64,000 nucleotides of DNA from Desulfurivibrionaceae bacterium (GCA_030145275.1 JAQYVV010000006.1:8000-71999), one strand, 5' to 3'. Positions 1,701-63,141 are shown, counted from the first letter of the stretch. Notes: a model not told the origin generated them from the letters alone. Translations and numbers: made by a program.

Positions 1701-1807
1701 GTAAATATTTGGCATCGCTTTTCAGGGAGGTGAGCAGGCTGGCGTAGCGTAGTTGGCTACGTGAGACAGCCTGATCGCCTTCCTGGGAAGTGATGCCGAA
1801 TATTTAC
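1701..1807. repeat. Palindromic intergenic repeat, type A (termini GTAAATATTTGGCA...TGCCGAATATTTAC)
   Basis: The two ~41-nt arms are reverse complements apart from 7 mismatches. The core GATCAGGCTG-type module is shared with other copies in the window. Confidence 0.85.
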
Positions 1808-1840
1808 AAAATAACGACGAAGGGCCAAGGCATAAATATC

Positions 1841-2479
1841 ATGATAAAAATACTTCTCGCAGATGACCATAATCTTGTTCGTGAAGGTTTACGCCGTATC
1901 ATTGAAGAGAGTGAAGGCATTGAAGTTGTCGCAGAGGCTGAAAACGGCAGGGACGCACTTCAACTGATAAAAGAACATAAGCTGGATGTCGCCGTCATAG
2001 ATCTTTCCATGCCGGGGATTGACGGACTTGAGGTGATAAACATTCTCCGCGAGACAAATCCTGAGCTACCGGTAATCGTACTGACCATGCATGAAGAAGA
2101 GCAATACGTGGTTCGTGCCATTGAGGCCGGAGCAATGGGATACCTGACCAAGAGATCCGCCGCTGAACAACTGGTCAGCGCTATAAAAAAAGTACACGGC
2201 GGCTCTCGCTACCTCACTCCTGAAGCGGCAGAACTTCTTGCCTTGAGGCTTGCAACAGGTACAAGGGGGCAATCCCCTCTAGACAGCCTCTCCACAAGAG
2301 AGCTGCAAGTTTTGCGGCGCTTGGCAATGGGCAGAACAAACAGGGAGATTGCAGAATCATACTGCATCAGCATTAAGACAGTTGACACCTATCGCCTTAG
2401 AATCTTGAAAAAACTAAATTTGCGCAACAATGCGGATTTGTCCAGATTCGCTTTACAAAATAAGTTGATAGAAGGGTAA
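1841..2479 (+). CDS. NarL/FixJ-family response regulator (REC + LuxR-type HTH)
   Basis: MIKILLADDH start and the acceptor context VAVIDLSMPGIDG. The C-terminal region LSTRELQVLRRLAMGRTNREIAE...SIKTVDTYR is a LuxR HTH. The upstream 17 codons of the ORF lie in the repeat element, so the start was moved to 1841. Confidence 0.9.
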   Translation: MIKILLADDHNLVREGLRRIIEESEGIEVVAEAENGRDALQLIKEHKLDVAVIDLSMPGIDGLEVINILRETNPELPVIVLTMHEEEQYVVRAIEAGAMGYLTKRSAAEQLVSAIKKVHGGSRYLTPEAAELLALRLATGTRGQSPLDSLSTRELQVLRRLAMGRTNREIAESYCISIKTVDTYRLRILKKLNLRNNADLSRFALQNKLIEG

Positions 2480-2488
2480 GTGGGTGGA

Positions 2489-2530
2489 GATGCAAGATGA
2501 AAGATGAAAGATGAAAGATGAAAGATGAAA
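2489..2530 (+). repeat. Heptamer tandem array GATGCAA (GATGAAA)x5
   Basis: Six head-to-tail 7-nt units begin 9 nt after the response-regulator stop codon. Confidence 0.9.
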
Positions 2531-2562
2531 AGAGTAAACTAGAATTTAATACCTGCAACCGT

Positions 2563-3393: not shown

Positions 3394-4980
3394 CTAAGGA
3401 ACATACTCGTCGGCACCCATGTCGTAATCGTCAACGTCATCACCTAATCCACCCACATCATAAGGACGTGCATCTCCTTCTATATCGTCAGCCGGAGCAG
3501 AGGTGGCAGAGGCGCTATCGATACAGGGTGAAACGTTGGTGCAACCAGCTGGATTATCGGCCCCGTTACAGATCCGAAAATCCCCTGCAGTGGTGGGGCT
3601 GCCAGACCCAGCCTGCTGAAAATCAACAAACTCAGGGTTGGCGTCAATGTTGCCGGTGCCTGCATAACCACCTTCCACATCGGAATAGGTAACTGTCGGA
3701 GTACCACTAATATTCGGGCCGGTACCACCAGCAGTATTCCCCCAGATAACACTGTTGATAATGGTGCCAATACCATACAGGCCACCACCCCTATTCGCGG
3801 AATAATTGCCGCTGATGGTAGTGTTGTAAACGTTCAGCGTTCCAGCGCCGCAATATATACCACCGCCGTCATTAGCTTCGATAATATTACCGCTGACAAT
3901 ACAGTTGGTCAGGGTAACAGTACCTCCCAAATTCCTGATAGCGCCGCCATATGCCCCCGCCTTGTTTCCTTGGATTAAGCTACTGTTTACTTCGGCGCTT
4001 CCATTCTGGATGTATAAGGCGCCGCCATTCTTAACAGTAGCAGCTATATTGTCGTTGATGGTACTATTAGTAATAACCAAGGACGTGCCAGCATCAGCAC
4101 TGTAGACAGCGCCACCGTGCTGAGTTGAAGTGTTGCTGCTTACACTAACATTCGTCAACGCTGCCACAACCGTGCCTCTCAATCTGATAGCTCCACCATA
4201 AGTCCCACCATTGGAGTCAATGCTTGTGTCACTGATAGTTAACGTAGAGCCAGCATCTGCGTACACGGCACCACCGCTACCGGCAGTGTTACCGTTGATG
4301 CTGCTACCACCGCTAATAGTGGCGGCGGTGTTGTCGTCAAGGAAGATACCGCCGCCACTGTAAGCGGTGTTGCTTACAGTGTTGTTGTCGATGTTACTGT
4401 CGGTAATGGTAACAGTGCTCGAGGCACCGCTCAAATAGATGCCACCGCCATCTCTGGTTGTAGTGTTGCTGCTTACGCTGCTACTGGTAATGGCCAGTTT
4501 TGAGTTGTCGCAACGAATACCAGCACCATATTGCGCAGTATTGCCTATTACGTTTATATTAAGCAAGGTGGTGGCAGTAGTGGTCGACGCATTTAACAGG
4601 TAAATGCCACCACCAGATCCAGTGGGCTGGTTGCCCTGGATGATACAGTTCTTGATAAGTGGTGCAGAGAGGCTGTCAACCAAGATACCACGGGTGTTAC
4701 TGTTAGTGATGACAGACCCCTGATTATCAATAGTGAATCCATCCAGTACTGCACTATGTGCACCACTGCTGATATCAACCACCTGGCCATTAGTTCCGTC
4801 GCCTTGAATGGTTGTGGTTGCAGCACCATAGACTGACTGAACGGTGACACTTTTAGTCGTTGGGAAAACTATCCTTTCACTATAAGTGCCGTTGCTGACC
4901 AAGACACATTGACCATCGGCGGCTGCGTTGATACCGGCCTGAATGGTGGCTGCCTCACTGGGCACCTCGACGGCGTCAAC
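3394..4980 (-). other. Parallel beta-helix region 2 of the giant protein
   Basis: The same GGG(I/A)Y / GGA(V/I)Y periodicity as region 1. The C-terminus is DIEGDARPYDVGGLGDDVDDYDMGADEYVP. Coordinates are approximate. Confidence 0.7.
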
Positions 4981-7900
4981 CACGGTTAAGGTTTGCTCTA
5001 CAATGGCATTTCCGTTAGCATCAGCAGTACCGTCATTGGCGTAGAACAGGTATGCAACACCACCATCGGCCACATAAGGAACAAGGGTAGAAATAGTGTA
5101 GAGTTTGCCATCGGTGTAGTCACTATCACCACCATCCACAACGGTCAGGTCTATCTTTTCACCGCCGTCAAGGTAATCGCCGTCATCATTTTTGTCCACC
5201 CACAGCTGAATAGTCACAGGAGCAGTATTGAGTAATTGGGTATACTGGACCCGGAAAGTGTAAAGCCCGCCACAGGGCCCAGATTCTTCTTCAACACCAT
5301 CGATGGTATAACCGCTCTCTCCGGTCCAATCCAGATCTGGCGGAGGACTGGCTGCAAAAATTCCTACGGTGGAGTCAGAGGTTGGGTCACCGGTGGCCGC
5401 ATCTGTACCATCTCCAGCCCTAAAGCTGTAGTTAAGATTGTTGTCACCCGCAGAGTTAAGATTGATGGCAACCTTATAGAGTTTGCCGTCAGTGTAGTCG
5501 CTGTCGCCACCATCCACTGCGCTTAGGTCTACCTTTTCACCGACGTCAAGGTAGTCGCTGTCATCATTTTTATCCAGCCAGAGCTGGATGGAAGCAGGTG
5601 CCTCATTGTCTGCGTCGGTATACTTGATGCGGAAGTCAAAGAGGCTGCCATCCTCGTCATTATTAGGATCAACACCGTCTGAGACATAATTCAGCAATCC
5701 AGTCCAATCCAAGGTCGGAACATGGTTGGCAATGGTCACACTACTGGTTGTGGTTGTTACCGGATCACCGATGGCCGCGACGCCGTTGGCGGCGTAGAAG
5801 CGGTAGTTAAGGGTATTGTCTCCTGCCTTGAAAAAATTCACAGTCCTGGTGTAGATTTTACCATCAGTACAGTCGGTATCAGCACTACTAATCTCGGTCA
5901 TGGTGAGGGTTTCACCACTATCAAGATAATCACCGTCGTCGTTTCTATCCAGCCACACCTGAATGGAGGTGGGCGGCGTGTTATGGGCATCAGTATAGGA
6001 AACCTGGAAGACGAAATCACTGCTGATAAAGCCACTGTCCGGATGGGCTCCGTCCGTTACATAATCACCACTACCAAGCCATGCCAGTTGCGGCACACTG
6101 CTGAGAACAACGGTGTTGTCGGTAACGGGTTCGCCTGTGGCGAGATCATAAGTGTCGGCAGCATAAAAACGATAGTTGAGCACATCGTCACCAGCGTAAA
6201 CTAGGTTTAAAGACTTGCTGTAGAGTTTACCGTCGGTATAGGTGATGTCCCCGCCATCAACTGCACTCATGGTATACTTTTCACCAGCTTCATAGCTGCC
6301 ATTGTCGTTTTCATCCACCCAGAGCTGGATGGCAACAGGTGCATCGTTATCAGCATCAACGTATGTAGTCCGGAATTCGAAACTGGCTCCACTCACCCCC
6401 TGATCGGGGTCAACGCCATCAGCAGCATAATTTGTCTCGCCAGTCCACTCAAGACTCGGGATATTGTTAAACACAGTCCCGACCTCATAGGCCCCCATGT
6501 CAATACCAGCGCCATTGGGACGGATGTTGTTTTCAATATCCGAGGCAGGTGCACCGGTGGCGGTCCCTGCATCCACGGCTGCCGAGTGATTTGGCAGATG
6601 GTAATCGCCCTCGGAAGTGGGGGCATACGAAAAGTCAAGGGGATCAACAAAATATGGGTCAATATTAATATTATTGTTACCGCTGTAACCGTCCTCACCA
6701 ATGTCGGAATAACTGGCAGTGACAGTACCGTTTATCTGCGAACTGCTACCGTTGCCCCAAATGATGGAGTTTGTTAGCGTTACCGTGGCTGTAGCGTCAA
6801 AGGCGACCTCCACTGCACTGCCAGAGTTGCTAGTGTTACCGCTGATGGTGCAATTCAAAATATCAGCAGCCAGAACAACATCCTCCCCGCTGAAATGAAA
6901 CCCACCACCGTTATAATCTCCCTTGTTGCCGCTTACCACACTGTTAACGAATGATGCAGTTGTGTTGCCGTCAACATAGGCACCGCCGCCATACTGGGAA
7001 CTATTTCCGGTAAAGAAAGATCTCTCAATAGTCGCGGTGCCGCCAGAGAGCAGTAGACCGCCACCTTTGGCAAAAAAAGCGCTAGAATTATCACGAATAG
7101 AGGAATCGATAAGGGTGAAGGTATTACCTGCCCCATTGACAACAGCTACGCCGCCGCCGCCTGTTCTACCATCGTTATCATTGAAGGTGGAACCGCTTAT
7201 GGTCATCGAGTCCAGAGCGACCAAACGTATAGCCCCCCCTGCAGAAGTACTTGAAGTATTACTGCTAAACGTGCTGTCGGAGATGCTGCCGGTAAGAAGA
7301 GTGGCCCCAGCACTTTCTAAATACACGCCGCCGCCATTCTGGGCACTGTTGCCACTGATGGTGCTATCGTCGATACTCACGATTACAGTACCGCCTGTGG
7401 CATTGCAATAGATTCCGCCGCCATAGGCGAAGTTGGTTCCGGAGTTGCCGCTGATGGTAGAACTGGAAACGGCCAGCGATGCATCAGCACTGGTTGCCAT
7501 AAAGATTCCGCCGCCACGATTGCCGCTGTGGTTATTACTGATGGTGGAGCCGGAAATATCCGCCGAACTGCCGCTGTCCAGATAGATGCCGGCACCATGT
7601 GATCCAGCGGTGTTACTGCTGATAGTCGTGGCACTAATAGTCACAGTGGACGAAGCCCCAATGACGTAGATACCACCGCCGCCACTATTGCCGATGTTAT
7701 TAGTTATAATAGAATTGATAATGGCAGGCGAAGAATCACTGATGTAGAGACCGCCCCCTTTGCCAAAATTTATTTGATTGCCGTTCTGCACAGTTACGCC
7801 GTTAAGTACTGTATCAGCGCCATTTTTAATCGTAACCGTTGAACCGGAGGCATTACCATCAATAATGCTGGAAGCAGCGCCGTTTTCAGAGATAATGGTC

Positions 7901-10900
7901 AGGTCCTTGTTGTCAATGGTGATTTTCTCCGTGCAGGTTCCGTCTGCAAGCAGGAGGGTATCACCATTCGCAGCATTGTTGATCGCTGTCTGCAGTGAGG
8001 TGTAGTCATAGTCTCCGGTGCCGTCACAAGACACCTTGATAGTATTAACGAAAAGGGTAACGATGTTGTCATTAGCCGCTATACCGCCGGCATCCACGCT
8101 GCCGTCAGAAGCAAAGAAACGATAGTTGATCACGCCGTCCCCCGCAATAAGCAAGGTTGTTGTCGCAACATACATTTTACCATCAGAGTAATCGGTATCC
8201 GAAGCATCAACGACGGTCAGGTCGATCTTTTCATCGCTGTCGTCGTAATCATCATCATCATTCCTGTCCACCCAAAGCTGTATTGCAGTAGGTGTGGTAT
8301 TGTCGGCGTCACTGTATTGCACCTGGAAGCTGAAACTGCTGTTATCAAGCCCGCTATCCGGATCGACACCGTCGGTGACATAATTGCTTACCCCGGTCCA
8401 GGTTAGTAGCGGCGCTGTGTTGCTGCTAGTCACGTTTACTGATCTGTCAGTGGTGGGCGTGCCTGTGGCTTCAAGCGCATCGCGTAAGGCGTAGAAGCGG
8501 TAGTTAAGCGAACCATCACCCGCATAGGCGAGGGCCAGCGTCTTGGAATATAATTTGCTGTCTGTTAAGGTGGTGTCGCCACTATCAACCTCGGTCATCT
8601 CATACTTTTCACCAGGCTCATAACTGCCGCTGTCATCAACATCCACCCATACCTGAATATTGCTTGGCAAGAGATTGTCGGCATGGCTGTAATCTATCTG
8701 GAAAACAAAAGAAGATCCGGAGGCTCCACTGTTGGGACTGACACCATCGGCGCTGTACCCTGCCTCACCACTCCAAGCCAGAACCGGAACATCCGGGTTC
8801 AGGGTAATCGTGGCGCCAGTAACCGGACTGCCGGTCGCTGTGCCATTTCTGTCCATGGCATGGAAGCGATATGAGAGAGTGCCGTCTCCGACACTGTTGA
8901 GCGCCATGATCCTGGTATACAACTTGCCATCTGATGAGTCGTGATCGCTGTCGTCAACATCAAACATGGTGAATTTTTCGTTCTCTGCATAACTGCCGCT
9001 GTCATCAACATCCACCCATACCTGGATAACAGTGGGGCGGTCACGATTGGCGTCAGTATATTCTACCCGGAAGGCAAAATAATTGCCGGACTGAGCGCTA
9101 TCAGGGCTGACACCATCGGTGGTGTAGCCTGCTTCGCCGGTCCAGGCCAGGGTCGGCGCTTCCTGGGCTATAGGATTGGAGCTTCGGGGATAGATATAGC
9201 CCCCACCAGTCGCATTACCATGGCAGTCTGAACACAGATTATCGGAAGTGTTGGAATCCCAGAATGTGCCGGTGCTGTCTGGCAAGTAAATTGGTTGGCT
9301 GGGCTCGACTACATCCCTGGTAGTTACATAACTGACTGAGGGAGATCCTACTACCATATCGGTGTAGAAAATTTTCATCCCCGGCTCCTTGCCAGTCAGC
9401 TTGCCGTCCCTGATCATGGAGAGTTGAGTTGATCCATGGACGTTGTGGCAGTTGATACAGGTGATAGTATTTTTCCCTGTGGTGCTGCGCCAATCGGATC
9501 TAAACCTGTATTGCATGCCAAGATGGTACTCGTGAGCATTGACAGGAGCAGGGTCAGGGCCTGTTGGATTCCAGTCTAAATCGTCCCGGAAGGTGGTACC
9601 GTATTCCGTAGATTTAGTCAGGTATTTATCCGGCAGATGGCAACCGTTACTGGAAAAACAGAGCCGATGCTCGTCTTGATTGGGCGTAACTCCAGTAAGT
9701 GGTACCACCATGGGATTAAGATCGTCCACCAGATTAAGACGATACCCCAGTCGGTACTCGTCCGAGTCGCAGTCACGATCATTTTGATCAATATCATTAG
9801 CAGGATCAGCATCAGTACAATCAAAGGACCGTGCCACGCCGTCGATATGTGCGGCGGAGTAGTCATGGCAATCATCGCACCCCTTGCCGGCACCCTGGAC
9901 CACGCCTCCGCTGGCGGGATAGGTGTCAGCACTATCCAGACCATGACCGGTCTTGTAATAGCCCCAGCCGGTACCGACGCCGTAGGTATAGTCACCGTCT
10001 TCGTCGCCGATGACATTGGGGGCACTGATAGCGCTGGCTACTGACGGAGCCTCATCATGACAGGTGGCACACCATTTATCTTTACCGGCCTGCAGCGTAA
10101 CACTGTCTGACTCGTAAATAGCGGTGTCCCAGTTATTTTTTGCGCCCACCACAGCGTCACTGACGCCGTCGTATGTACCGCCTTGACTATGGCAGGTATC
10201 GCAGACCGTGGTCAACAGCAGACTGGAAGCCCCATCCGCAAAGTCTGGGAAATTAGCTGTATCATGGCAGGTATCACAACCCACATTGGGGCCTTTTAAG
10301 TCATCACTGTCATTTTCTGTATGGGTTGAATGGCTCCAAAATGAGCCTGCGCCACCAGTGGCACCACCGTAGCCTGGATCATGGCCATGGCAGGGCTCAC
10401 AGCCCGGCCCCTGGGAATCAATACCATGGGCAAAGCCCTGAGTATGGGCATGGCAGCTAATGCAGTCGATGCTGGTCACGGCCCCGGCATTGGTATGATT
10501 CTGGTCCGGACCGCTCCCGTCATTACGAAAATGGTCGGTCATGGTATGGCAAACTTCACAGATGCCGTCGTAGATTGCATCGCCATCAGCAAAAGAATTG
10601 TCCCCCTGCCTGTCGGAGAACTTGACCGTGGCATCATCTGTGCCATCATCCGGCGTGTTATTCCAGTCAACCAATCGCTTGATGTATTGACCGTAGATGA
10701 CACCAAAGTTAGTGGGAGGACTGATATAGGTGTACATAGAGCGAACATCCCCAGCCACGGTCATGGTCGTGGCGTCGATAGCTGTAACCGCAAAGGCGTT
10801 ACCCGTTTTTCTCAGGTTGGGTAAGAGGATGGGCCGCCTGGCCGCTGTAGTCTTTTCGGTTATGGAATCTATGTCCCAGCCACTCTTAAAAGCCCCGCCG

Positions 10901-11331
10901 GAGTACGTCAGCACACTAATATCATTGCCAGACTCATAGGCGTAGGCATCTATCTGCCCAGAGAACAGTATGAGTTCAGCGCCTTCAGTGCGAATCCGGG
11001 CCTTCTGGTATTGATAGTGCGGATCATGGCAGTCTATACACTGCTTGCTCCAAGTGCCATACTTGGCGCTGGTATTCTCGCTGGTGTGACCGAGAACTAT
11101 GGGCGCACTGGTGTTACTATATGGGCTGGTGGCAGCATTGTGACAATTTACCGTGCAGAAGTTATTGATATTACTGCCGGTAAGTAGAGGTGAATCAGCC
11201 AGCGAAGTATCATGACAACTGGAGCAGGAGATATTATGACCTGCGTCATGGGGCGCATCAAGCCCGGCAAAAACCGGGGCCATTAAAAAAAGAGAGACCC
11301 ACGTGAAGCAAATAACTTTTAAGAGAAGCAT
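3394..11331 (-). CDS. Giant secreted multihaem cytochrome c fused to seven Ig-like modules and two parallel beta-helix regions (2645 aa)
   Basis: Signal peptide MLLLKVICFTWVSLFLMAPVFA. The first ~720 aa hold 11 CXXCH motifs plus CTVNCH and CFSSNGCH. There are seven ~120-aa modules. Two Gly/Ser/Thr/Asn-rich regions are full of GGG(I/L/V)Y and GGA(I/V) turns, as in PMP-type right-handed beta-helices. These regions end in IDMGAYE and YDMGADEY. Confidence 0.9.
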   Translation of the reverse strand: MLLLKVICFTWVSLFLMAPVFAGLDAPHDAGHNISCSSCHDTSLADSPLLTGSNINNFCTVNCHNAATSPYSNTSAPIVLGHTSENTSAKYGTWSKQCIDCHDPHYQYQKARIRTEGAELILFSGQIDAYAYESGNDISVLTYSGGAFKSGWDIDSITEKTTAARRPILLPNLRKTGNAFAVTAIDATTMTVAGDVRSMYTYISPPTNFGVIYGQYIKRLVDWNNTPDDGTDDATVKFSDRQGDNSFADGDAIYDGICEVCHTMTDHFRNDGSGPDQNHTNAGAVTSIDCISCHAHTQGFAHGIDSQGPGCEPCHGHDPGYGGATGGAGSFWSHSTHTENDSDDLKGPNVGCDTCHDTANFPDFADGASSLLLTTVCDTCHSQGGTYDGVSDAVVGAKNNWDTAIYESDSVTLQAGKDKWCATCHDEAPSVASAISAPNVIGDEDGDYTYGVGTGWGYYKTGHGLDSADTYPASGGVVQGAGKGCDDCHDYSAAHIDGVARSFDCTDADPANDIDQNDRDCDSDEYRLGYRLNLVDDLNPMVVPLTGVTPNQDEHRLCFSSNGCHLPDKYLTKSTEYGTTFRDDLDWNPTGPDPAPVNAHEYHLGMQYRFRSDWRSTTGKNTITCINCHNVHGSTQLSMIRDGKLTGKEPGMKIFYTDMVVGSPSVSYVTTRDVVEPSQPIYLPDSTGTFWDSNTSDNLCSDCHGNATGGGYIYPRSSNPIAQEAPTLAWTGEAGYTTDGVSPDSAQSGNYFAFRVEYTDANRDRPTVIQVWVDVDDSGSYAENEKFTMFDVDDSDHDSSDGKLYTRIMALNSVGDGTLSYRFHAMDRNGTATGSPVTGATITLNPDVPVLAWSGEAGYSADGVSPNSGASGSSFVFQIDYSHADNLLPSNIQVWVDVDDSGSYEPGEKYEMTEVDSGDTTLTDSKLYSKTLALAYAGDGSLNYRFYALRDALEATGTPTTDRSVNVTSSNTAPLLTWTGVSNYVTDGVDPDSGLDNSSFSFQVQYSDADNTTPTAIQLWVDRNDDDDYDDSDEKIDLTVVDASDTDYSDGKMYVATTTLLIAGDGVINYRFFASDGSVDAGGIAANDNIVTLFVNTIKVSCDGTGDYDYTSLQTAINNAANGDTLLLADGTCTEKITIDNKDLTIISENGAASSIIDGNASGSTVTIKNGADTVLNGVTVQNGNQINFGKGGGLYISDSSPAIINSIITNNIGNSGGGGIYVIGASSTVTISATTISSNTAGSHGAGIYLDSGSSADISGSTISNNHSGNRGGGIFMATSADASLAVSSSTISGNSGTNFAYGGGIYCNATGGTVIVSIDDSTISGNSAQNGGGVYLESAGATLLTGSISDSTFSSNTSSTSAGGAIRLVALDSMTISGSTFNDNDGRTGGGGVAVVNGAGNTFTLIDSSIRDNSSAFFAKGGGLLLSGGTATIERSFFTGNSSQYGGGAYVDGNTTASFVNSVVSGNKGDYNGGGFHFSGEDVVLAADILNCTISGNTSNSGSAVEVAFDATATVTLTNSIIWGNGSSSQINGTVTASYSDIGEDGYSGNNNINIDPYFVDPLDFSYAPTSEGDYHLPNHSAAVDAGTATGAPASDIENNIRPNGAGIDMGAYEVGTVFNNIPSLEWTGETNYAADGVDPDQGVSGASFEFRTTYVDADNDAPVAIQLWVDENDNGSYEAGEKYTMSAVDGGDITYTDGKLYSKSLNLVYAGDDVLNYRFYAADTYDLATGEPVTDNTVVLSSVPQLAWLGSGDYVTDGAHPDSGFISSDFVFQVSYTDAHNTPPTSIQVWLDRNDDGDYLDSGETLTMTEISSADTDCTDGKIYTRTVNFFKAGDNTLNYRFYAANGVAAIGDPVTTTTSSVTIANHVPTLDWTGLLNYVSDGVDPNNDEDGSLFDFRIKYTDADNEAPASIQLWLDKNDDSDYLDVGEKVDLSAVDGGDSDYTDGKLYKVAINLNSAGDNNLNYSFRAGDGTDAATGDPTSDSTVGIFAASPPPDLDWTGESGYTIDGVEEESGPCGGLYTFRVQYTQLLNTAPVTIQLWVDKNDDGDYLDGGEKIDLTVVDGGDSDYTDGKLYTISTLVPYVADGGVAYLFYANDGTADANGNAIVEQTLTVVDAVEVPSEAATIQAGINAAADGQCVLVSNGTYSERIVFPTTKSVTVQSVYGAATTTIQGDGTNGQVVDISSGAHSAVLDGFTIDNQGSVITNSNTRGILVDSLSAPLIKNCIIQGNQPTGSGGGIYLLNASTTTATTLLNINVIGNTAQYGAGIRCDNSKLAITSSSVSSNTTTRDGGGIYLSGASSTVTITDSNIDNNTVSNTAYSGGGIFLDDNTAATISGGSSINGNTAGSGGAVYADAGSTLTISDTSIDSNGGTYGGAIRLRGTVVAALTNVSVSSNTSTQHGGAVYSADAGTSLVITNSTINDNIAATVKNGGALYIQNGSAEVNSSLIQGNKAGAYGGAIRNLGGTVTLTNCIVSGNIIEANDGGGIYCGAGTLNVYNTTISGNYSANRGGGLYGIGTIINSVIWGNTAGGTGPNISGTPTVTYSDVEGGYAGTGNIDANPEFVDFQQAGSGSPTTAGDFRICNGADNPAGCTNVSPCIDSASATSAPADDIEGDARPYDVGGLGDDVDDYDMGADEYVP
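4990..6458 (-). repeat. Four tandem ~120-aa modules (in-gene repeat set 2)
   Basis: The modules start LEWTGETNYAADG, LAWLGSGDYVTDG, LDWTGLLNYVSDG and LDWTGESGYTIDG, with the same internal signature as set 1. Coordinates are approximate. Confidence 0.8.
6480..8050 (-). other. Parallel beta-helix region 1 of the giant protein
   Basis: ~20-residue periodic turns of the form ..S.I..N.A...GGGIY.. It ends with the NIRPNGAGIDMGAYEVG motif. Coordinates are approximate. Confidence 0.7.
8060..9153 (-). repeat. Three tandem ~120-aa modules (in-gene repeat set 1)
   Basis: The modules start LAWTGEAGYTTDG, LAWSGEAGYSADG and LTWTGVSNYVTDG. Each contains Y(T/S)DADN..P..IQ(V/L)WVD..D(D/S)G.Y and ends in L.YRF.A. 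Coordinates are approximate. Confidence 0.8.
9154..11331 (-). other. Haem-rich N-terminal region of the giant protein
   Basis: All CXXCH motifs of the protein fall here: CSSCH, CIDCH, CEVCH, CISCH, CEPCH, CDTCH x2, CATCH, CDDCH, CINCH, CSDCH. Confidence 0.85.
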
Positions 11332-16952: not shown

Positions 16953-16958
16953 CCTCCG

Positions 16959-18110: not shown

Positions 18111-18412
18111 GGTCTGCCGACACGCAGCCTTTTGGGATAAACACTCCACAACTAAACGGTCAGGCCTGCCCATCCAGTTGTGATCTCTCAGGTATAACGG
18201 ATACTCTCCCACAATAAACTCCCCTTGTTTATAAATATATCCCCAAAAAGAGTTTTTCCCTCTTTCAGCAGCCACAAAACACATATCACCTAACCTCGGG
18301 AACTCTGTAACTTTGCACCAAGCAACGACAAACTAAACAATCAGCCCAACAAACATTTCACGCTTTACTTAATAACTGTTTAACTTAATCCTTAAAGACT
18401 ACTACAATGTGA

Positions 18413-20320: not shown

Positions 20321-20341
20321 TGTATCTTCACTCCTTTATTG

Positions 20342-20450
20342 GTAAATATTCGGCAACACTCCAGCTACGCCCGACCTGGCCGACTCACGTAGAACTACTA
20401 CGCTTCGCCAGCCAGATCGAACACATCTGAAGCGTTGTCAAACATTTACA
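20342..20450. repeat. Palindromic intergenic repeat, type A
   Basis: GTAAATATTCGGCAACAC...GTTGTCAAACATTTAC. It shares the CACGTAGAACTACTACGCTTCGCC core with the copies at 21498 and 34149. Confidence 0.85.
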
Positions 20451-20465
20451 GAATAGTGGTTTTTA

Positions 20466-21476
20466 TTAGTTTTGGGCAGCAAGCCGAATATTTACCTTTA
20501 TTGAATCGGAAAGCATCCCCACGGCGAGGGCGTAATAGGTTGATCGGTTCCATTTCATTAGGACCCTGAAATTATCATATATCAAAAAATATCGGTTTTC
20601 AGATTTATCCGGATGAATGAGAGATGCGCTCACCTGTGCGGCAGGAAGGGAAGCTCCTTTTGCTGTGCGCACTCCAAGTCCCTGCCAATAAGACAAATCT
20701 TTTTGGGTGGAAAGCCCAATCAAACTGGGGTCCAATCCCGAGGGGACAAGGACCTCCCTGCCCCATTTCCAGCCAGGTTGCCATCCAGAGACAGAGAGAT
20801 AGTTGGCTCCGGAGGCAAAAAGATCGCCACCCTGTTGCCATATTTCTATCTTCCCGTCAGGTTCAAAGTCGACTCCATATTTCCGAAAAACAGAGGGTAG
20901 AAACTGAAGATACCCCATCGCCCCGGCCCATGACCCTTCCATCTGCGACATGGAAACTTTTCCATCATCCAGTAGGTGCAAGGCATCAAGCAGTTCTTTT
21001 TTAAAAAAGGCACTGCGCCTTGGATCATAGGACAACGTTGCAAGTGCTTCTATTATTGGAAAGCCGCCGGTTACCCTGCCAAAGTCAGTCTCTATGCCCC
21101 ATAAAGCAACGAGTACGTGAGGTGGAACTCCGTACTTCCGGGCCACCTTTTCCAAAAGGGGATAATTTTTATTAAGCTCATTGCGCCCTTTTTTAACCCG
21201 AATAGAAGATATTGTCCGAGATAAATATTGGCTGAGGTTTAGTTTAAATTCAGGCTGGTTTCTATCAAGTTTTATGACCAGTTCATTATAGCTAACTCGA
21301 GAAAAGGCGTTTTCCAAAGTCCCAGAGGATATACCCGCAGTAATGGCCTCCCCCTTAAACTGCTGTACCCAGGAATCAAAACCAGCCCCTTCAGATTCCG
21401 TGGCCTGACAGATCGCGGCAACAGCAAAGAACAATACAAAAACAATGATTCCCTGGATAGATACTCTATGACTCAT
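20466..21476 (-). CDS. mltB: Lytic murein transglycosylase (MltB family)
   Basis: Signal peptide, then LVALWGIETDFG and GAMGYLQFLPSVF motifs. The start was moved to MSHRVSIQG because the first 13 ORF codons lie in a repeat terminus. Confidence 0.8.
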   Translation of the reverse strand: MSHRVSIQGIIVFVLFFAVAAICQATESEGAGFDSWVQQFKGEAITAGISSGTLENAFSRVSYNELVIKLDRNQPEFKLNLSQYLSRTISSIRVKKGRNELNKNYPLLEKVARKYGVPPHVLVALWGIETDFGRVTGGFPIIEALATLSYDPRRSAFFKKELLDALHLLDDGKVSMSQMEGSWAGAMGYLQFLPSVFRKYGVDFEPDGKIEIWQQGGDLFASGANYLSVSGWQPGWKWGREVLVPSGLDPSLIGLSTQKDLSYWQGLGVRTAKGASLPAAQVSASLIHPDKSENRYFLIYDNFRVLMKWNRSTYYALAVGMLSDSIKVNIRLAAQN

Positions 21477-21497
21477 GCTATACTGTAATCCCTTAAG

Positions 21498-21722
21498 GTA
21501 AATGTTCGGCAACACTCCATGACGGAGTCTACACTACGTTTCGCTTACCTACGCCCGCCCAACGGAAGTGCCCTTGGGGTGCGATCAGGCTGACTCACGT
21601 AGAACTACTACGCTTCGCCAACCTGATCGAACACATCTGAAGCGTCGGAGTCTTCGCTTACCTGTCAAACATTTACATTTTATTGGTTATTGTTGTTTTC
21701 CAGTGTTAGCCGAATATTTACC
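21498..21722. repeat. Composite type A repeat (nested modules plus TTATTGTTGTTTTCCAGTGTTAGCCGAATATTTAC tail)
   Basis: It is homologous in inverse orientation to 34149-34315, and its tail is also present at 24078-24122. Confidence 0.85.
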
Positions 21723-21920
21723 CTTTAAGATAGAAATATTGGTAAATGTTGCTACTCTACCGTATTCCCCCCTTTTTTTCCAGCAAAGACAGCCCCCCCC
21801 TGGGCAACTATCTGCCTCAACAACATCCTCAAGCCCCCAGCAGATCAAAAAAAAAGGGTGCCTTATAAAAGACACCCTTATCCCAGAGCCTATCTCGCCC
21901 TTATGTAAATATAATCATAG

Positions 21921-22095
21921 TTGCTATTCAGGTAGGGCCCCAAAACGGGCATAACCACCAAATTGTAACTGTTTAGATGTGCCCCAGGTGTGTGTGAACA
22001 GGCCTTTCAGCAGATAGCGAACAAAGTGAGACTTCGATACATCGGTATGCTGGAAGTCCTGTTCGCGCGCAGATGGGGTGCAGCTGAACAGTTAC
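21921..22095. repeat. Palindromic intergenic repeat, type B (GTAACTGTTTAGATGTGCCCC...GCAGCTGAACAGTTAC)
   Basis: It shares CAGGTAGGGCCC-AAAACGGGCATAACCAC and the GAACAGGCCTTTCAG hairpin module with 30537-30726 and 52632-52780. Confidence 0.85.
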
Positions 22096-24077: not shown

Positions 24078-24122
24078 ATTTTGTTGATTATTGTTGTTTT
24101 CCAGTGTTAGTCGAATATTTAC
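24078..24122. repeat. Partial type A repeat (tail module only)
   Basis: AATTTTGTTGATTATTGTTGTTTTCCAGTGTTAGTCGAATATTTAC matches the tail of 21498-21722. Confidence 0.8.
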
Positions 24123-24363
24123 CGGTAATCAGTAGTGCCACCCTTGCACTACGATCAGCAATATGACGCCGCTTTGCTGCTATCTGATCATTATAAACAT
24201 TTTCATTTTTGACCAATTGGCAGTTTAGTACCTTAGAAATCATTTCGAAGTCTGCGCTTATCTCGTGTTTTTTATACCCCCCCAGGTAAGCGTTAGACTC
24301 CGAGGGGGTACTGAACTGAGTGGCAATAAATGAAGAAAGTAGATTCATTTGAGCGTGTTGCAT
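24088..24363 (-). CDS. Hypothetical protein (91 aa), doubtful
   Basis: Its last ~11 codons (..GKYSTNTGKQQ) are encoded by the repeat, and it has no recognisable motif. Confidence 0.25.
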   Translation of the reverse strand: MQHAQMNLLSSFIATQFSTPSESNAYLGGYKKHEISADFEMISKVLNCQLVKNENVYNDQIAAKRRHIADRSARVALLITGKYSTNTGKQQ

Positions 24364-29377: not shown

Positions 29378-29428
29378 AGGAGAGTAAATTTTCGGGTTGA
29401 AGCTGAAAACTACTAAAACCACCTAATT

Positions 29429-29536
29429 GTAAATGTTTGACAGCGCTTCACAGGGAGGTGATCAGGTCGATCAGCTATACAATCGGTATGCTGGTTGGCC
29501 TGATCACCTTTCTGTGGAGTGCTGCCGAATATTTAC
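29429..29536. repeat. Palindromic intergenic repeat, type A
   Basis: GTAAATGTTTGACAGCGCTTCACAGGGAGGTGATCAGG...CCTGATCACCTTTCTGTGGAGTGCTGCCGAATATTTAC. Confidence 0.85.
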
Positions 29537-29549: not shown

Positions 29550-30533
29550 TTGAACACACCTGATTACAACAAGCTGCGCAACGCCATAGCCCAATTTGAC
29601 TCGGCCCGCATCCTTGTCATTGGCGATATCATTCTTGATCATTTTATCTGGGGATCCGTGGCAAGAATTTCACCGGAGGCACCAGTTCCGGTCGTTAATG
29701 TCACCCATGAGAACCTTTTGCTTGGCGGTTCGGCCAATGTCCTTCATAATATCTACGCCTTGAACGGCCAGGCGACCATCTGCGGCATAATCGGCCAGGA
29801 CCAGATGGGTGAGCATATCATCAAACTGCTTGAAGACCTCGGTTCTTCAACAGAAGGAACTATCCGCTCTCCAGACCGGCCAACAACCATTAAAACCAGA
29901 ATTATTGCAAGGCATCAGCAGGTTGTTCGTTTTGACCGTGAGGCAACTGAGTGCATTGATGACGCCATTCTAAAAAATGTTTTGGACTTTTTCGGGGCTA
30001 ATCTTGGTGAATTTGATGCCGTTATTGTTTCGGATTATGCCAAGGGCATTGTCTGTGATGCTCTCATGACCTCACTACAAGAAGAATTAGTAAAACATCC
30101 TCATATTCCTTTGGTGGTAGACCCAAAACCTGGATCACAAAGACGTCTGAAAGGGGCCACTCTGATAACCCCAAATCATCATGAAGCTGAACAGATGTCA
30201 GGCATCAAAATAGTTGATGACAACAGCCTACAGATTGCCGGAAGCAAACTTCTCGAGGAGCTGGAGAGCAAAGCCGTTCTCATTACTCGCGGCGAGGCTG
30301 GCATGGCCCTTTTTGAAAAAAATAAACCAATGGTTACCATTCCGACCATGGCCAAAGAGGTCTTCGATGTTACAGGCGCTGGAGATACCGTCATAGCCAC
30401 CCTTTCACTAGGCCTTGCTGCGGGCCTCTCATTTGTCGAGGCAGCAACTCTGGCAAACGTTGCAGCTGGAATTGTAGTTGGAAAGGTGGGAACCGCCACC
30501 GCAAATATTGAAGAGATACTAGGAGCATTTTAA
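29550..30533 (+). CDS. hldA: D-glycero-beta-D-manno-heptose-7-phosphate kinase (RfaE domain I only, PfkB fold)
   Basis: ARILVIGDIILDHFIWGSV.RISPEAPVPVV, ITPNHHEAE, and DVTGAGDTVIA. A TTG start at 29550 follows AGGAG at a 6-nt spacing. The longer ORF start lies inside the repeat. Confidence 0.8.
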   Translation: MNTPDYNKLRNAIAQFDSARILVIGDIILDHFIWGSVARISPEAPVPVVNVTHENLLLGGSANVLHNIYALNGQATICGIIGQDQMGEHIIKLLEDLGSSTEGTIRSPDRPTTIKTRIIARHQQVVRFDREATECIDDAILKNVLDFFGANLGEFDAVIVSDYAKGIVCDALMTSLQEELVKHPHIPLVVDPKPGSQRRLKGATLITPNHHEAEQMSGIKIVDDNSLQIAGSKLLEELESKAVLITRGEAGMALFEKNKPMVTIPTMAKEVFDVTGAGDTVIATLSLGLAAGLSFVEAATLANVAAGIVVGKVGTATANIEEILGAF

Positions 30534-30536
30534 CTT

Positions 30537-30726
30537 CAGGTAGGGCCCAAAAACGGGCATAACCACAGAATTGTAACTGTTTAGATGTGCCCCACTCCGG
30601 GTGTGTGTGAACAGGCCTTTCAGCTATACATCGGTATGCTGGAAGGCCTGTTCGCACCCCAAGGGTACTTCCGTTGGGCGCGCGCAGGTAGCGCAGACTC
30701 CGGATGGGGAGCAGCTGAATAGTTAC
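30537..30726. repeat. Palindromic intergenic repeat, type B
   Basis: It is the reverse-complement homologue of 52632-52780 and shares its 5' flank module with 21921-22095. Confidence 0.85.
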
Positions 30727-34148: not shown

Positions 34149-34315
34149 GTAAATATTCGACTAACACGTGAAAACAACAACCAACGAAATGTAAATGTTT
34201 GACAGGTAAGCGAAGACTCCGACGCTTCAGATGTGTTCGATCAGGTTGGCGAAGCGTAGTAGTTCTACGTGAGTCAGCCTGATCGGGCGCAGCTGAAGGG
34301 TTGCCGAATATTTAC
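34149..34315. repeat. Composite type A repeat (inverse orientation of 21498-21722)
   Basis: GTAAATATTCGACTAACACGTGAAAACAACAA... followed by a nested GTAAATGTTTGACA...TTGCCGAATATTTAC unit. Confidence 0.85.
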
Positions 34316-35570: not shown

Positions 35571-35630
35571 GTAATTATTCAGATGTGCCCCAGGTAAGCG
35601 CCCGCCGGTGGGGTGCAGCTGAATAGTTAC
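35571..35630. repeat. Minimal type B repeat
   Basis: GTAATTATTCAGATGTGCCCC-aggtaagcgcccgccggt-GGGGTGCAGCTGAATAGTTAC. Confidence 0.8.
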
Positions 35631-37887: not shown

Positions 37888-38058
37888 GTAAGTATTCGGC
37901 ATGACTCCATCTTCGCACGATCAGGCTGTCTCACATAGCCAACTATGCTACGCCAGCCTGATCGCACGAGGTAAGCGTAGACTCCGATATGAAGCCATGC
38001 CAAACATTTACAAATTTTTCGGTTTATGTAACTTTTTTAGCTCATGCCGAATATTTAC
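37888..38058. repeat. Composite type A repeat
   Basis: GTAAGTATTCGGCATGACTCC...GATCAGGCTG...CAGCCTGATC...CATGCCAAACATTTAC plus a second CATGCCGAATATTTAC terminus. Confidence 0.85.
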
Positions 38059-46863: not shown

Positions 46864-46879
46864 GTAGCTGAATAGTTAC
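46864..46879. repeat. Solo type B terminus (GTAGCTGAATAGTTAC)
   Basis: It matches the right terminus of the type B copies and lies between convergent kinase genes. Confidence 0.5.
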
Positions 46880-52615: not shown

Positions 52616-52631
52616 TAAAGCTTCCTTTTGT

Positions 52632-52780
52632 GTAACTGTTCAGCTGCACCCCATCCGGAGTCTGCGCTACCTGCGCGCGCCCAACGGAAGTACCCTTGGG
52701 GTGCGAACAGGCCTTCCAGCATACCGATGTATAGCTGAAAGGCCTGTTCACACACACCTGGGGCACATCTGAACAGTTAC
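52632..52780. repeat. Palindromic intergenic repeat, type B, between ftsQ and ftsA
   Basis: GTAACTGTTCAGCTGCACCCC...GGGGCACATCTGAACAGTTAC with an internal GAACAGGCCTT...AAGGCCTGTTC hairpin. Confidence 0.9.
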
Positions 52781-52793
52781 CCTTTTGTCGTAC

Positions 52794-59707: not shown

Positions 59708-59760
59708 TGATTAAGTTTGTCCTGTTCCGGTTAAACTTCGTTTATTTACGTTCAATAATG

Positions 59761-59912
59761 GTAACTATTCAGCTGCGCCTCATCTGCGCCCGATCAGGAC
59801 GGCCAGCATACTTATGTATAGCTGACCGGCCTGATCGAACACATCTAAGGCACATCTGAACAGTTACGCTTGGGAGTTTACCCATGTTATGCAATTCTCT
59901 CTGAATAGTTAC
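59761..59912. repeat. Type B repeat plus extra terminus, between murF and mraY
   Basis: GTAACTATTCAGCTGCGCC...GGCACATCTGAACAGTTAC, followed by ...CTCTGAATAGTTAC. Confidence 0.88.
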
Positions 59913-59966
59913 CAATAATGGTCCTAATTTCACCAACTGCAGACTCGATGTCATTTTGCCACTTCT

Positions 59967-61475
59967 TCAAAGCAGCAGGCGCTCCATAAAAGTCTCCATC
60001 CGCATACCACGTGACCCCTTAAACAAAATAAGATCTCCCTTTTGCACAAGTTGATCACTGACAAGCTGCTCCAAACTCTCTGCCAAAGCATCTCTGTCGC
60101 TAAACGAAAGCGCCTTGTCCTCAGGCATCCCGGCAAGCCTGGCAGCTTCTACCATGATTTTTGAATACTCACCTATGGCAAGCAGATAATTAAAATCATT
60201 GCCGGCCACCATCGCCCCTATTTCCTGATGAGCTTCCAAGCTATAGTCCCCCAACTCCAGCATATCACCCAATACAGCCACGACTTTAACTCCTTCCCTC
60301 ATGCCGCTTATAGTTTCGATGGCAGCCCGCATTGAAGCCGGGTTTGCATTATAGGAATCGTTGAACAACAGAATGCCCCTTGAATTTGTACATATTTCAA
60401 GACGTTTAGTGGTTGCTTCAAAATTTTCCAATCCGGAGATTATATCTGTACAGCTCACCCCAACCGCATGAGCCATGGCGGCGGCAGCCAGACAGTTGCT
60501 GACATTATGCAAACCAAGCGCCTTTATTGAGAGCTGCCCCATTTCATCGCCGATATGCAGGTTAAAAAGCATACCCCTAACACCCTGATTGACAATATTG
60601 CTTGCCCGGACAAAGGATCCCTTCTTCAGTCCGAATGTAATCTTTGTACCCTGGGCTACCTCAGAGAGAGCTGCCACCCTTTTGTCATCAAGGTTAACAA
60701 TCACTTTGGCGCCAGCAGAACAGCCCCGGAAAAGTTCCCCCTTTGCTCGCGCCACCCCTTCAATGCTACCTAGCCCAGCTATATGGGCACTATGAACATT
60801 CAAGATACATGCGACATCCGGGTTTGCAATTTCCGTCAGCCTGGCAATCTCACCTTCCCTATTCATGCCCATTTCCAAAAGAGCAAATTCATGGCAATAA
60901 TTGGCAGGAAGCAGGGACAGCGGCAGACCAATAAGATTGTTAAAATTGCCTTTTGTTTTAATGACCTCACCTTGGTGTTCCAAGATAGCTGCGGTCATCT
61001 CTTTAACCGTGGTTTTACCTGAGCTTCCAGTAATCCCTATAACTTTAATATCTTTCAGCAGCCGGCGTCTGTATTTTGCCAGTTCACCCAAGGCATACAG
61101 AGAATCGGAAACGATTATACATGGAGCGGAAATCTTTTTTTCAGGTACCTTTTCGGTAATAATACAGGCGGCCCCTTTTTTTATCGCCTCATGGACATAA
61201 TTAGCCCCATCAAAAGTTTCACCATTCAAGGCAAGAAATATATCTCCTGGTTTTATTGTCCTGGTATCAGTTGAGATTGACCCAAAAGCACCCTGACTCT
61301 CACCATACAAAAGTCGTCCATGGCATGCCTTTAACAGCTCTTCCAATGTCCAGGATGGGCTTTGCAAAACCGCACAACCCAAGCCGATTCCCCCCTCAGG
61401 AAACATTGCTACCTCCGGCATCTTGCATCTTTGAATCATTTCCGCTTCCATCACAAGTTCTTCCTGGCATCTCAC
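59967..61475 (-). CDS. murF: UDP-MurNAc-tripeptide--D-alanyl-D-alanine ligase
   Basis: IGITGSSGKTTVKEM. The GTG start overlaps the murE stop (GTGA). Confidence 0.9.
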   Translation of the reverse strand: MRCQEELVMEAEMIQRCKMPEVAMFPEGGIGLGCAVLQSPSWTLEELLKACHGRLLYGESQGAFGSISTDTRTIKPGDIFLALNGETFDGANYVHEAIKKGAACIITEKVPEKKISAPCIIVSDSLYALGELAKYRRRLLKDIKVIGITGSSGKTTVKEMTAAILEHQGEVIKTKGNFNNLIGLPLSLLPANYCHEFALLEMGMNREGEIARLTEIANPDVACILNVHSAHIAGLGSIEGVARAKGELFRGCSAGAKVIVNLDDKRVAALSEVAQGTKITFGLKKGSFVRASNIVNQGVRGMLFNLHIGDEMGQLSIKALGLHNVSNCLAAAAMAHAVGVSCTDIISGLENFEATTKRLEICTNSRGILLFNDSYNANPASMRAAIETISGMREGVKVVAVLGDMLELGDYSLEAHQEIGAMVAGNDFNYLLAIGEYSKIMVEAARLAGMPEDKALSFSDRDALAESLEQLVSDQLVQKGDLILFKGSRGMRMETFMERLLL

Positions 61476-63091
61476 GCCGCCTGTTGATACAGTCTCTCTA
61501 ATTGCTTCCTGGCCTCTATCCTGTCATCAAAAAAAACTGTGCCCTCGGCGCTTATCTGATAATTTTCATGCCCTTTGCCAGCCAAAAGGACAACGTCATC
61601 TTTTAGCGCCATGGACACAGCATATTTTATGGCCTCCCCCCTGTCAGTAATCAGGAGATATCCTTTACTACTATTTGACAATTCATCTATTTTTTCTACT
61701 CCCGATGCAACAACACCTTTTTCAATTGCAGCCATTATTTCAACAGGAGATTCTGTCCTTGAATTATCTGAGGTTAGCACAACAACATCAGCCAAATAGC
61801 CGGCAACCTCTCCCATGGTATACCTTTTTCCAGTATCCCGGTCCCCGCCACAGCCAAAAACGACTATAATTCTACCTTCGCTAAGCTGACGCATTGTTTG
61901 CAGAACGTTTTTCAAGGCATCAGGAGTATGAGCATAATCAACAAAAACAGAACATCCAGGCTTTGAACCATCCTGCTTTTTCTCTTCACAAACTGTGGCA
62001 AGCCTGACTCTTTCAAGTCTGCCAGGGACATCTTTCAGTTCTGATATTCCTTTACTTATTAAATCACTTGCTATGCCCAAGCCTAAACCAGCCCCAACCG
62101 CTGCCAAAATATTTTTCAGATTGAAATCGCCCACCAGACTGCTTTTAATGGAAATCGCCTGCCCTTGAAAAACAGCACTCGCTGCAGTTCCCATCAAACC
62201 GCATGAAAAATCTGTTACATGCAGATCATTGGATGCGGCCAAACCACAGGAAAAAATCTCAAAAGTTGACTCTGCTTTTCCATGCTCTACCTGCAACTCC
62301 TGGATCATCGTGCTGCCCCAGTCAACCTCCCCGCTCTCTTTATGATCACTTCTGCCACAAAAAATAAAGGCCTTGCCGTTTTTCTTAACATAGCTTTGAA
62401 ACAACACTTTTTTTGCTTCAAAGTAATCCCTCATTGTGCCGTGAAAATCGAGATGATCTCTGCTTAGATTTGTGAACAGTACTAGATCAAATTTTAAGCC
62501 ATATATGCGTTTCTGGACCAGCGAATGAGATGATACCTCCATGACAAGATGGGTAACACCATCTTGAACCATTTCCCTAAGCAACTTTTGCAGAATTACA
62601 GGTTCTGGAGTTGTGAACGGAGCAGGGTGCTCCTTGCCATTGAATCGATAATTGACTGTGCCGATAACCCCGGGATTGTACCCCCCGGAACGGATAATGG
62701 ATTCCAGCAGATAAGTTGTGGTTGTTTTGCCATTCGTTCCGGTTATGCCGACGAGAATTAATTCTTTGGCAGGATTGTCATAAAAGGCGGCAGCTATCTC
62801 TGACAAGACCTCTCGGCTGTCTTGCACTTCCACAAAGAGGGCATCATTTTCAAAACTGCACCCTTTTTCTCCAACAACAGCAACACAACCTTTTTTCAGG
62901 GCCTCTTGAATATAATTATGCCCATCAGTACTGCTACCTGCAATAGCTACAAATAACGCCCCAGGCACAACCTTGCGGGAATCAGTTTCTATTGCAGTTA
63001 CTTCTCTATCACCTATGTCACCTATCAAGCGGCAATTAACTTCAGCCAGTAAGGTAGAAATCTTTTTGGCCCTTTCGGTGATCTCAGGCAT
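61472..63091 (-). CDS. murE: UDP-MurNAc-L-Ala-D-Glu--2,6-diaminopimelate ligase
   Basis: VGITGTNGKTTTTYL, and TSDNSRTE (a DNPR-like motif). Confidence 0.93.
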   Translation of the reverse strand: MPEITERAKKISTLLAEVNCRLIGDIGDREVTAIETDSRKVVPGALFVAIAGSSTDGHNYIQEALKKGCVAVVGEKGCSFENDALFVEVQDSREVLSEIAAAFYDNPAKELILVGITGTNGKTTTTYLLESIIRSGGYNPGVIGTVNYRFNGKEHPAPFTTPEPVILQKLLREMVQDGVTHLVMEVSSHSLVQKRIYGLKFDLVLFTNLSRDHLDFHGTMRDYFEAKKVLFQSYVKKNGKAFIFCGRSDHKESGEVDWGSTMIQELQVEHGKAESTFEIFSCGLAASNDLHVTDFSCGLMGTAASAVFQGQAISIKSSLVGDFNLKNILAAVGAGLGLGIASDLISKGISELKDVPGRLERVRLATVCEEKKQDGSKPGCSVFVDYAHTPDALKNVLQTMRQLSEGRIIVVFGCGGDRDTGKRYTMGEVAGYLADVVVLTSDNSRTESPVEIMAAIEKGVVASGVEKIDELSNSSKGYLLITDRGEAIKYAVSMALKDDVVLLAGKGHENYQISAEGTVFFDDRIEARKQLERLYQQAA

Positions 63092-63121
63092 ATGGAACCC
63101 TCAACTTTATTTAGCCCCCCT

Positions 63122-63141
63122 CGGAGTCCATCGCTTACCTG
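63122..63141. repeat. Fragment of a type A repeat module
   Basis: CGGAGTCCATCGCTTACCTG compared with CGGAGTCTTCGCTTACCTG in 21498-21722. Confidence 0.5.

Follow-up and report, generated by a model that had tools for sequence, protein, structure and literature searches.

Insertion sequences (ISs) of the IS66 family have terminal repeats that start GTAA(GCG) and are flanked by 8-bp direct repeats, a combination that characterises the family (PMC11946415). ISDge4, a member of the ISBst12 group, carries a single transposase gene between terminal inverted repeats (TIRs) that read GTGACTACTCAGCA and GTAACTGCTCAGCA, and it too is bounded by an 8-bp repeat (PMC12898284). Limited full-text searches of the literature found no description of a miniature inverted-repeat transposable element (MITE) derived from IS66 or ISBst12. 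Here we analysed 64,000 nt from a Desulfurivibrionaceae bacterium (GCA_030145275.1, JAQYVV010000006.1:8000-71999), referred to below as the window, in which an earlier note had listed 14 sites with a palindromic intergenic repeat of a family that it did not recognise. The repeats are of a well-known kind but form a family that has not been described before. We read them as MITEs with ISBst12/IS66-type ends that depend for their movement on an ISBst12-group transposase acting in trans, a reading to which we assign a probability of about 0.85.

Repeats in the window and their layout

A pattern scan of the window returned 17 matches to the GTAAAT-class terminus motif GTAAATRTTYGRCA, compared to 0.22 expected, and 12 matches to the GTAACT-class motif GTAACTRTTYAGMTG, compared to 0.04 expected, placing both of the terminus types proposed in the earlier note far above chance. 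These motifs of 12-14 nt occur as inverted pairs bounding imperfect palindromes with arms of 41-49 nt. One match at 5204-5217 (GTGACTATTCAGCT) lies within a 2645-codon open reading frame (ORF) and has no partner, and was taken as chance. A covariance model built from 55 relatives outside the window, and run on the whole window with filters off, identified 11 cores (1701, 20342, 21498-21676, 21965, 29429, 30573, 34191, 35571, 37888, 52632 and 59761) and no core beyond these. All 14 sites listed earlier hold family sequence, 11 as cores and three as fragments (24078, 46864 and 63122), with two of them (21921 and 30537) turning out to be the degenerate outer terminus and spacer of type-2 composites. 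Outer termini at 1656, 29384 and 59899 and a solo 18-mer at 24284 were added to that list.

Together, 11 elements and four fragments occupy 1850 bp of the window (2.9% of 64 kb), close to the ~1.7 kb first estimated. The elements are 60-224 bp long, with no ORF and no coding capacity. Every copy lies between genes in a short spacer, 2-107 nt from a start or stop codon, in line with the placement described before, and most of these spacers separate genes on the same strand. Members of one subfamily share 91-98% identity, and the values of up to 98% reached between copies in the window show that these were amplified recently.

Alignment of the copies revealed a constant, oriented layout in which an outer terminus is followed by a spacer of ~31 nt and an imperfect hairpin of ~107 nt, for a usual unit of ~152 bp. 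The outer "A-type" terminus reads GTAA(A/C)TATTC(G/A)GC, while the 5' arm of the hairpin opens with a "G-type" pseudo-terminus, GTAA(A/C)TGTT(C/T), and the 3' arm closes with an inverted A-type terminus. Every intact terminus begins GTAA, and type-1 and type-2 termini differ at positions 5 and 11, with the changes coupled at both ends (pairs 5-120 and 11-109). What had been described as units nested inside one another at 21498-21722, 34149-34315 and 37888-38058 is instead this three-terminus layout, and genuine nesting consists of mini-insertions of 17 and 22 nt. The same distinction divides the internal modules proposed earlier: GGAGTCT.CGCTTACCT and CCCAACGGAAGT.CCCTTGGGG behave as inserted sequences, whereas GATCAGGCTG..., CGTAGTAGTTCTACG and GAACAGGCCTT... 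belong to the hairpin arms and apex and are specific to subfamilies.

The copies in the window, in order of position, are:

1656..1807, + strand: E1, type-1 composite MITE of 152 bp (89 bits, + strand), with degenerate outer terminus 1656-1669, spacer 1670-1700 and 107-nt hairpin 1701-1807; target-site duplication AAAATAAC at 1648-1655 and 1808-1815
20342..20495, - strand: E2, type-1 composite MITE of 154 bp (94.7 bits, - strand), with hairpin 20342-20449 and spacer plus outer terminus 20450-20495; duplication CTTTATTG at 20334-20341 and 20496-20503
21498..21721, - strand: E3, type-1 composite MITE of 224 bp, with two 17-nt modules (one interrupted, 21525-21551) and one 22-nt module (21558-21579); duplication CCCTTAAG / CCTTTAAG, 7/8 match
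21917..22095, + strand: E4, type-2 composite MITE, with degenerate outer terminus (ATAGTTGCTATTCAG), spacer to 21964 and hairpin 21965-22095, whose apex has an extra insert of ~24 nt; direct repeat ATATAATC(AT) at 21909-21918 and 22096-22105
24078..24122, - strand: solo fragment, type-1 spacer and outer terminus without a hairpin
24284..24301, - strand: solo 18-nt module GGAGTCTAACGCTTACCT, in the loop of a G+C stem (CCCCCTC ... GGGGGGG); missing from the earlier list
29384..29536, + strand: E5, type-1 composite MITE of 153 bp (94 bits, + strand), with outer terminus 29384-29397 and hairpin 29429-29536; duplication GAAGGAGA at 29376-29383 and 29537-29544
30530..30726, + strand: E6, type-2 composite MITE of 197 bp, with a 22-nt and a 16-nt module and a degenerate outer terminus; duplication GGAGCATT at 30522-30529 and 30727-30734
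34149..34315, + strand: E7, type-1 composite MITE of 167 bp, 94% identical to E3, with one 17-nt module (34204-34220); duplication decayed (5/8)
35571..35630, + strand: E11, internal-deletion derivative of type 2, 60 bp (47.8 bits), with both termini retained and no clear duplication
37888..38058, - strand: E8, type-1 composite MITE of 171 bp, with one 17-nt module (37969-37985); duplication GGACATTA / GGGCATTA, 7/8 match
46866..46879, - strand: solo type-2 terminus GTAACTATTCAGCT, 13 nt past a stop codon
52632..52780, - strand: E9, type-2 simple form of 149 bp, the hairpin alone with a 16-nt and a 22-nt module, 98% identical to E6; perfect duplication CCTTTTGT at 52624-52631 and 52781-52788
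59761..59912, - strand: E10, type-2 composite MITE of 152 bp (100 bits, - strand), with hairpin 59761-59867 and spacer plus outer terminus 59868-59912; duplication CAATAATG at 59753-59760 and 59913-59920
63123..63140, + strand: solo 18-nt module GGAGTCCATCGCTTACCT, in the loop closed by a short G+C stem (CCCCCCTC ... GAGGAGG)

Insertion-sequence ends and target sites

The MITE terminus GTAACTATTCAGC is identical at 13 of 13 positions to the ends of two ISs. The first is a single-gene IS66-family IS of Geobacillus kaustophilus pHTA426, reading GTAACTATTCAGCCCG...GGGCTGAATAGATAC between two copies of AACTCGTC. The second is a metagenomic IS of 1583 bp that carries P0148, with left inverted repeat (IRL) GTAACTATTCAGCCCC and right inverted repeat (IRR) ...CCTGAATAGTTAC; assemblies of different samples (L123-L130) place it between different flanks, which puts the number of insertion sites at three or more, every one with a separate 8-bp repeat, and the TGA stop of its transposase gene falls within the right terminal repeat (...CCTGAATAGTTAC). 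Scanning metagenomes with a profile of ISBst12-type transposases yielded ~40 ISs of 1.5-1.6 kb whose ends read GTAACT(A/G)(C/T)TCAG, including 12 ends that are exactly GTAACTATTCAG and nine ISs with a perfect 8-bp duplication. Conservation among ISBst12-type ISs is limited to the first 14-16 nt, which explains how MITEs with unrelated interiors can have the same termini. A gammaproteobacterial form of the MITE, 121 bp long with a 17-nt spacer and a different interior, shares the termini, architecture and duplications.

The MITEs have in common with the ISBst12 group (ISBst12, ISDge4, the pHTA426 IS and the metagenomic ISs) the terminal 12-13 nt, GTAACT(A/G)(T/C)TCAGC, and the 8-bp duplication. 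The type-1 terminus departs from the consensus of the group at two positions, 5 and 11, with the same changes at both ends. In contrast to the ISs, each with one gene of ~490 codons, the window elements have no transposase gene, and the 107-nt hairpin with its internal pseudo-terminus was absent from all 96 IS loci examined. Lacking a DDE_Tnp_IS66 ORF, the elements are derivatives or hitch-hikers rather than members of the IS group. Two candidate routes from an IS to a MITE were considered. The right arm as a remnant of the transposase C-terminus was rejected for want of a consistent reading frame, and internal deletion of an IS with the hairpin at its 3' end was unsupported, since in the ISs examined the transposase gene runs into the IRR and no IS locus has the hairpin.

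Canonical IS66 elements with tnpA, tnpB and tnpC (ISCro1, ISPsko1 and others) resemble the MITEs less closely. They also start GTAA and make an 8-bp duplication, as in an example from an E. coli plasmid that reads GTAACCGTCTC...GCCGCTTAC between copies of GAGGAAAT, but they have three genes, and their terminal repeat differs beyond the GTAA (GTAAGCG, compared to GTAACTRTTCAG in the MITEs). Other canonical IS66 terminal repeats read GTAAGCGCC... (PMC12888890; also in an IS compared here). Separately, an IS66-family element at 208-2881 of a gut "Bacteriophage sp." contig (MT838039) has ends, GTAAATAACTCGC, that recall the type-1 terminus GTAAATATTCGGC; the 8-bp sequences flanking it are inverted rather than direct repeats, so its true ends may lie further out.

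Target-site duplications were counted over 153 terminus pairs from the window and related loci. A perfect 8-bp duplication was present at 24 pairs and a 7/8 match at another 10, compared to 0.002 expected, and the same pairs showed no excess of direct repeats at lengths other than 8 bp. Among the window copies, the duplication is perfect in seven and a 7/8 match in two. The duplication encloses the whole composite and not the inner hairpin, and some copies that are only a hairpin have one as well (52632-52780). Duplicated targets are A+T-rich (78% compared to 51% for background).

Insertion has remodelled the ends of host genes. Two genes now terminate inside a MITE, one encoding a pfkB-like kinase (29433-30533; 30738) and the other an SLT_2 transglycosylase (20466-21478). 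E2 provides the final nine codons and the stop of the transglycosylase gene, making the protein eight residues longer, and the pfkB-like gene has its TAA stop in the degenerate outer terminus of E6 and has lost its ATGA overlap with yicC. Excising an element in silico along with one copy of its duplication restored sensible gene ends: the pfkB-like gene regained "...ILGALA*" with an ATGA stop/start overlap onto yicC, and the SLT_2 gene regained "...SDSIKE*". The E5 duplication, GAAGGAGA, is a second copy of the ribosome-binding site of the pfkB-like gene.

Proposed mobilisation in trans and alternative readings

These features suggest a mechanism in which a DDE transposase from the ISBst12 group (IS66 family) would act in trans on the non-coding elements. 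It would recognise the terminal 12-14 bp, either GTAACT(A/G)TTCAGC or the co-varied GTAAAT(A/G)TT(C/T)GGC, make an 8-bp staggered cut, preferably at A+T-rich targets in short intergenic gaps, and insert the element there. The usual mobile unit would consist of the IRL, the left subterminal spacer of ~31 nt and the 107-nt hairpin that ends in the IRR. The hairpin alone could also be mobile, since a near-copy of the terminus opens its 5' arm.

Several points weigh against mobilisation by an ISBst12-group transposase. Transposition itself is deduced from the footprints that it would leave in the sequence. tblastn searches with IS66 TnpB, TnpC and an ISBst12-type transposase found no IS66/ISBst12 transposase in the 64-kb window, where none had been visible to the earlier reader either, or in 115 loci of 8 kb from carrier genomes, so the source of mobility must lie in another part of the genome, and we infer that a partner transposase encoded there moves the elements. 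The hairpin is absent from all 96 ISBst12-type IS loci, and none of the ISs examined was an autonomous element with the type-1 terminus GTAAAT...CGG (GTAAATATTCGGC). Finally, the strand asymmetry of the hairpin is left unexplained by simple MITE biology.

Candidates for an autonomous copy were also sought directly. No two termini lying 0.4-6 kb apart in the window or related loci were joined by a duplication. One apparent autonomous copy (L100) proved to be a composite and a solo end, and a weak tblastn match at another locus (L014) was a hydrogenase-maturation (Hyp-like) gene. Clusters of ORFs flanking the elements contained response regulators, kinases and ABC ATPases only.

The hairpin asymmetry gives rise to the alternative that survives best, in which the hairpin is the selected unit and the transposon ends merely spread it. 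The hairpin would then be either a functional structured RNA (an mRNA stabiliser, RNase processing site or operon insulator) or a strand-specific substrate for transposition. Predicted folding energies differ between the strands by a mean of 17 kcal/mol, and for 86 of the 88 copies that were informative, stability lies with the strand that runs from outer terminus through spacer to hairpin, with the G-type terminus 5'. Arm mismatches compatible with G·U pairing number 500 on the stable strand versus 120 on the other, and purine·purine mismatches 302 versus 47. Across 55 diverse copies, 95.1% of cells were pairing in the sense orientation versus 82.1% in the antisense, and G·U pairs were ~10-fold more numerous (342 versus 35), a contrast that is somewhat inflated by orienting the sequences by folding energy but agrees with an independent marker, the side on which the spacer lies. 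The same copies have compensatory changes in 31 of 43 pairs, a level of covariation reached in 0 of 500 shuffles, and they conserve tandem U·G/G·U (41-50 of 55 copies) as well as G·A/A·G motifs. Copies lie inside operons, and hence would be co-transcribed.

A function as RNA is harder to reconcile with the orientation of the elements, which shows no bias relative to flanking co-directional genes (25 sense, 22 antisense), with the lack of any consistent sigma-70-like promoter or intrinsic-terminator signal in the elements, or with the lack of an Rfam family. Covariation of the arms could also arise without RNA function, since copies share descent and each subfamily derives from one master copy. 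We consider it unlikely that the hairpin, rather than the mobile element, is what selection has acted on. The related proposal, that a selected single-strand structure of RNA or single-stranded DNA has been kept across the subfamilies in Desulfobulbales, we regard as doubtful. If true, it would point to a structured, strand-specific intermediate in ISBst12/IS66-type transposition or to a hairpin RNA module co-opted by hosts inside operons.

The earlier note had compared the repeats to repetitive extragenic palindromes (REPs) and bacterial interspersed mosaic elements (BIMEs), or to MITEs. REPs are units of 20-40 nt that leave the target site unduplicated and are associated with a gene for a REP-associated tyrosine transposase (RAYT), which is IS200/IS605-like. 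Like REPs and BIMEs, the window repeats are intergenic, palindromic and multi-copy, combine into larger modules and have no transposase nearby, and no RAYT gene was noticed among the window genes (only 10 ORFs were scanned against Pfam), a result that does not favour this explanation. Spread by a RAYT is very improbable given that the units are 107-224 bp rather than 20-40 bp, that 8-bp duplications are a mark of DDE rather than HUH/RAYT chemistry, and that the termini match exactly the TIRs found on DDE elements from the ISBst12 group; the comparison to MITEs is the half that stands.

Two other kinds of imperfect palindrome are similar in form. ERIC/IRU of enterobacteria, Correia elements of Neisseria and RUP of pneumococcus are also imperfect palindromes of ~100-150 bp with many copies in short intra-operon spacers, one orientation of which folds better as RNA through G·U pairs, and which have size variants from internal indels. 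Correia elements duplicate TA, not 8 bp. The window family differs from all of these in its unrelated sequence, its three-terminus composite, its link to ISBst12/IS66 and its occurrence in two phyla, and it has no Rfam match. Integron attC sites share conserved ends, a variable centre, imperfect-palindrome structure and strand-specific folding. An attC reading was rejected on the basis of the 8-bp duplications, the scattering of copies among housekeeping genes, the lack of a cassette array and the absence of any integrase noticed in the window; the attC consensus is RYYYAAC/GTTRRRY, to which the ends of the window elements are unrelated.

An origin of the copies by local duplication, or through faulty assembly of this one contig, as their local density alone might suggest, can be dismissed almost outright, since copies have different flanks and their own duplications and the same architecture recurs at 115 or more loci, spread over several orders and at least 49 species-level genomes.

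Distribution, nested modules and significance

The distribution was obtained from one pattern scan of species-representative genomes, which found the family at no fewer than 115 loci. The first 80 of these loci were assigned to genomes, and came from at least 49. Carriers include many Desulfobulbales, among them the isolate Desulfosediminicola flagellatus IMCC35005 (CP050698, locus L016), and sulfur-oxidising and other Gammaproteobacteria (Thiotrichales, Sedimenticola, Chromatiaceae and Methylococcaceae). Metagenome-assembled genomes (MAGs) labelled Syntrophus, Desulfuromonadales and Saprospiraceae also carry it. The window itself belongs to a Desulfobulbaceae-like host, in which the family is unusually dense, and bacteria of sediments carry it widely. 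The failure of the earlier reader to recognise the family is matched by the databases, where it is uncatalogued. Rfam 15 gave no match at gathering thresholds and, at E<=1, only sub-threshold resemblance to long miRNA hairpins. BLAST of three composites against a plasmid collection gave no match, the terminus pattern had no matches in viral contigs, and literature searches for the terminus strings returned unrelated primers only.

Two kinds of mini-module are inserted in the MITEs. The 17-nt module GGAGTCTNCGCTTACCT occurs 22 times in the data, in either arm and either orientation, always with C immediately before it. It makes no duplication, and in matched pairs of copies (L099 versus L058, L011 versus L035) the presence or absence of exactly these 17 nt is the difference. 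In its 17- to 18-nt form, GGAGTC..CGCTTACCT, the module is also found outside MITEs, at 24284-24301 and 63123-63140 in the window and at L006:102 and L056:7223 elsewhere, and both solo copies in the window occupy the loop of a short CCCCCTC/GRGGRGG stem. In reverse complement the module starts AGGTAAGCG, resembling the canonical IS66 terminus GTAAGCG. The second is a 22-nt hairpin module, CCCAACGGAAGTNCCCTTGGGG, of the form CCC(A/G)A(C/A)GGAAGTNCCCTTGGGG, which sits in MITE arms as an insertion and lacks a target duplication. Its copies are:

21558-21579: 22-nt module, window
30657-30678: 22-nt module, window
52680-52701: 22-nt module, window
L056:6843: 22-nt module, another genome, flanked by ...GC(G) and TGCG
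L087:1469: 22-nt module, another genome, flanked by ...GC(G) and TGCG

Both modules, of 17 and 22 nt, might belong to a class of ultra-short insertions that has so far gone unrecognised.

Other features of the window are unrelated to the MITEs. Intergenic tandem arrays of heptamers were found at 2488-2530, 31627-31660, 31745-31780 and 36220-36245 (AGATGAA x6, AAGTTGA-like x4, TCTTTCA x5 and ACTTTCA x3.6). Two of these, near 31.7 kb, are mutually inverted and flank ~90 nt downstream of yicC. On the - strand, the 2645-codon ORF (3394-11331) adjoins an NHL/PKD-repeat protein beside a multihaem cytochrome (paired CXXCH, MtrC-like; 14373-18284), and this may be an extracellular electron-transfer locus. 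A match to the sar RNA of Rfam at 63639-63708 (+ strand) is below threshold (26.9 bits compared to a gathering score of 43, E = 0.38) and is probably chance.

The mechanism of IS66/ISBst12 transposition is poorly characterised. As a natural minimal substrate of ~150 bp, the MITE would define what the transposase needs in cis, namely a terminus of ~13 bp. In the window, elements are present at nearly every sixth gene junction, where they remodel gene ends and duplicate ribosome-binding sites, and this density and remodelling bear on the annotation and assembly of MAGs from Desulfobulbales and sulfur-oxidising Gammaproteobacteria. The elements would also mark recent transposition, as well as exchange among the co-habiting Desulfobulbales and Gammaproteobacteria.

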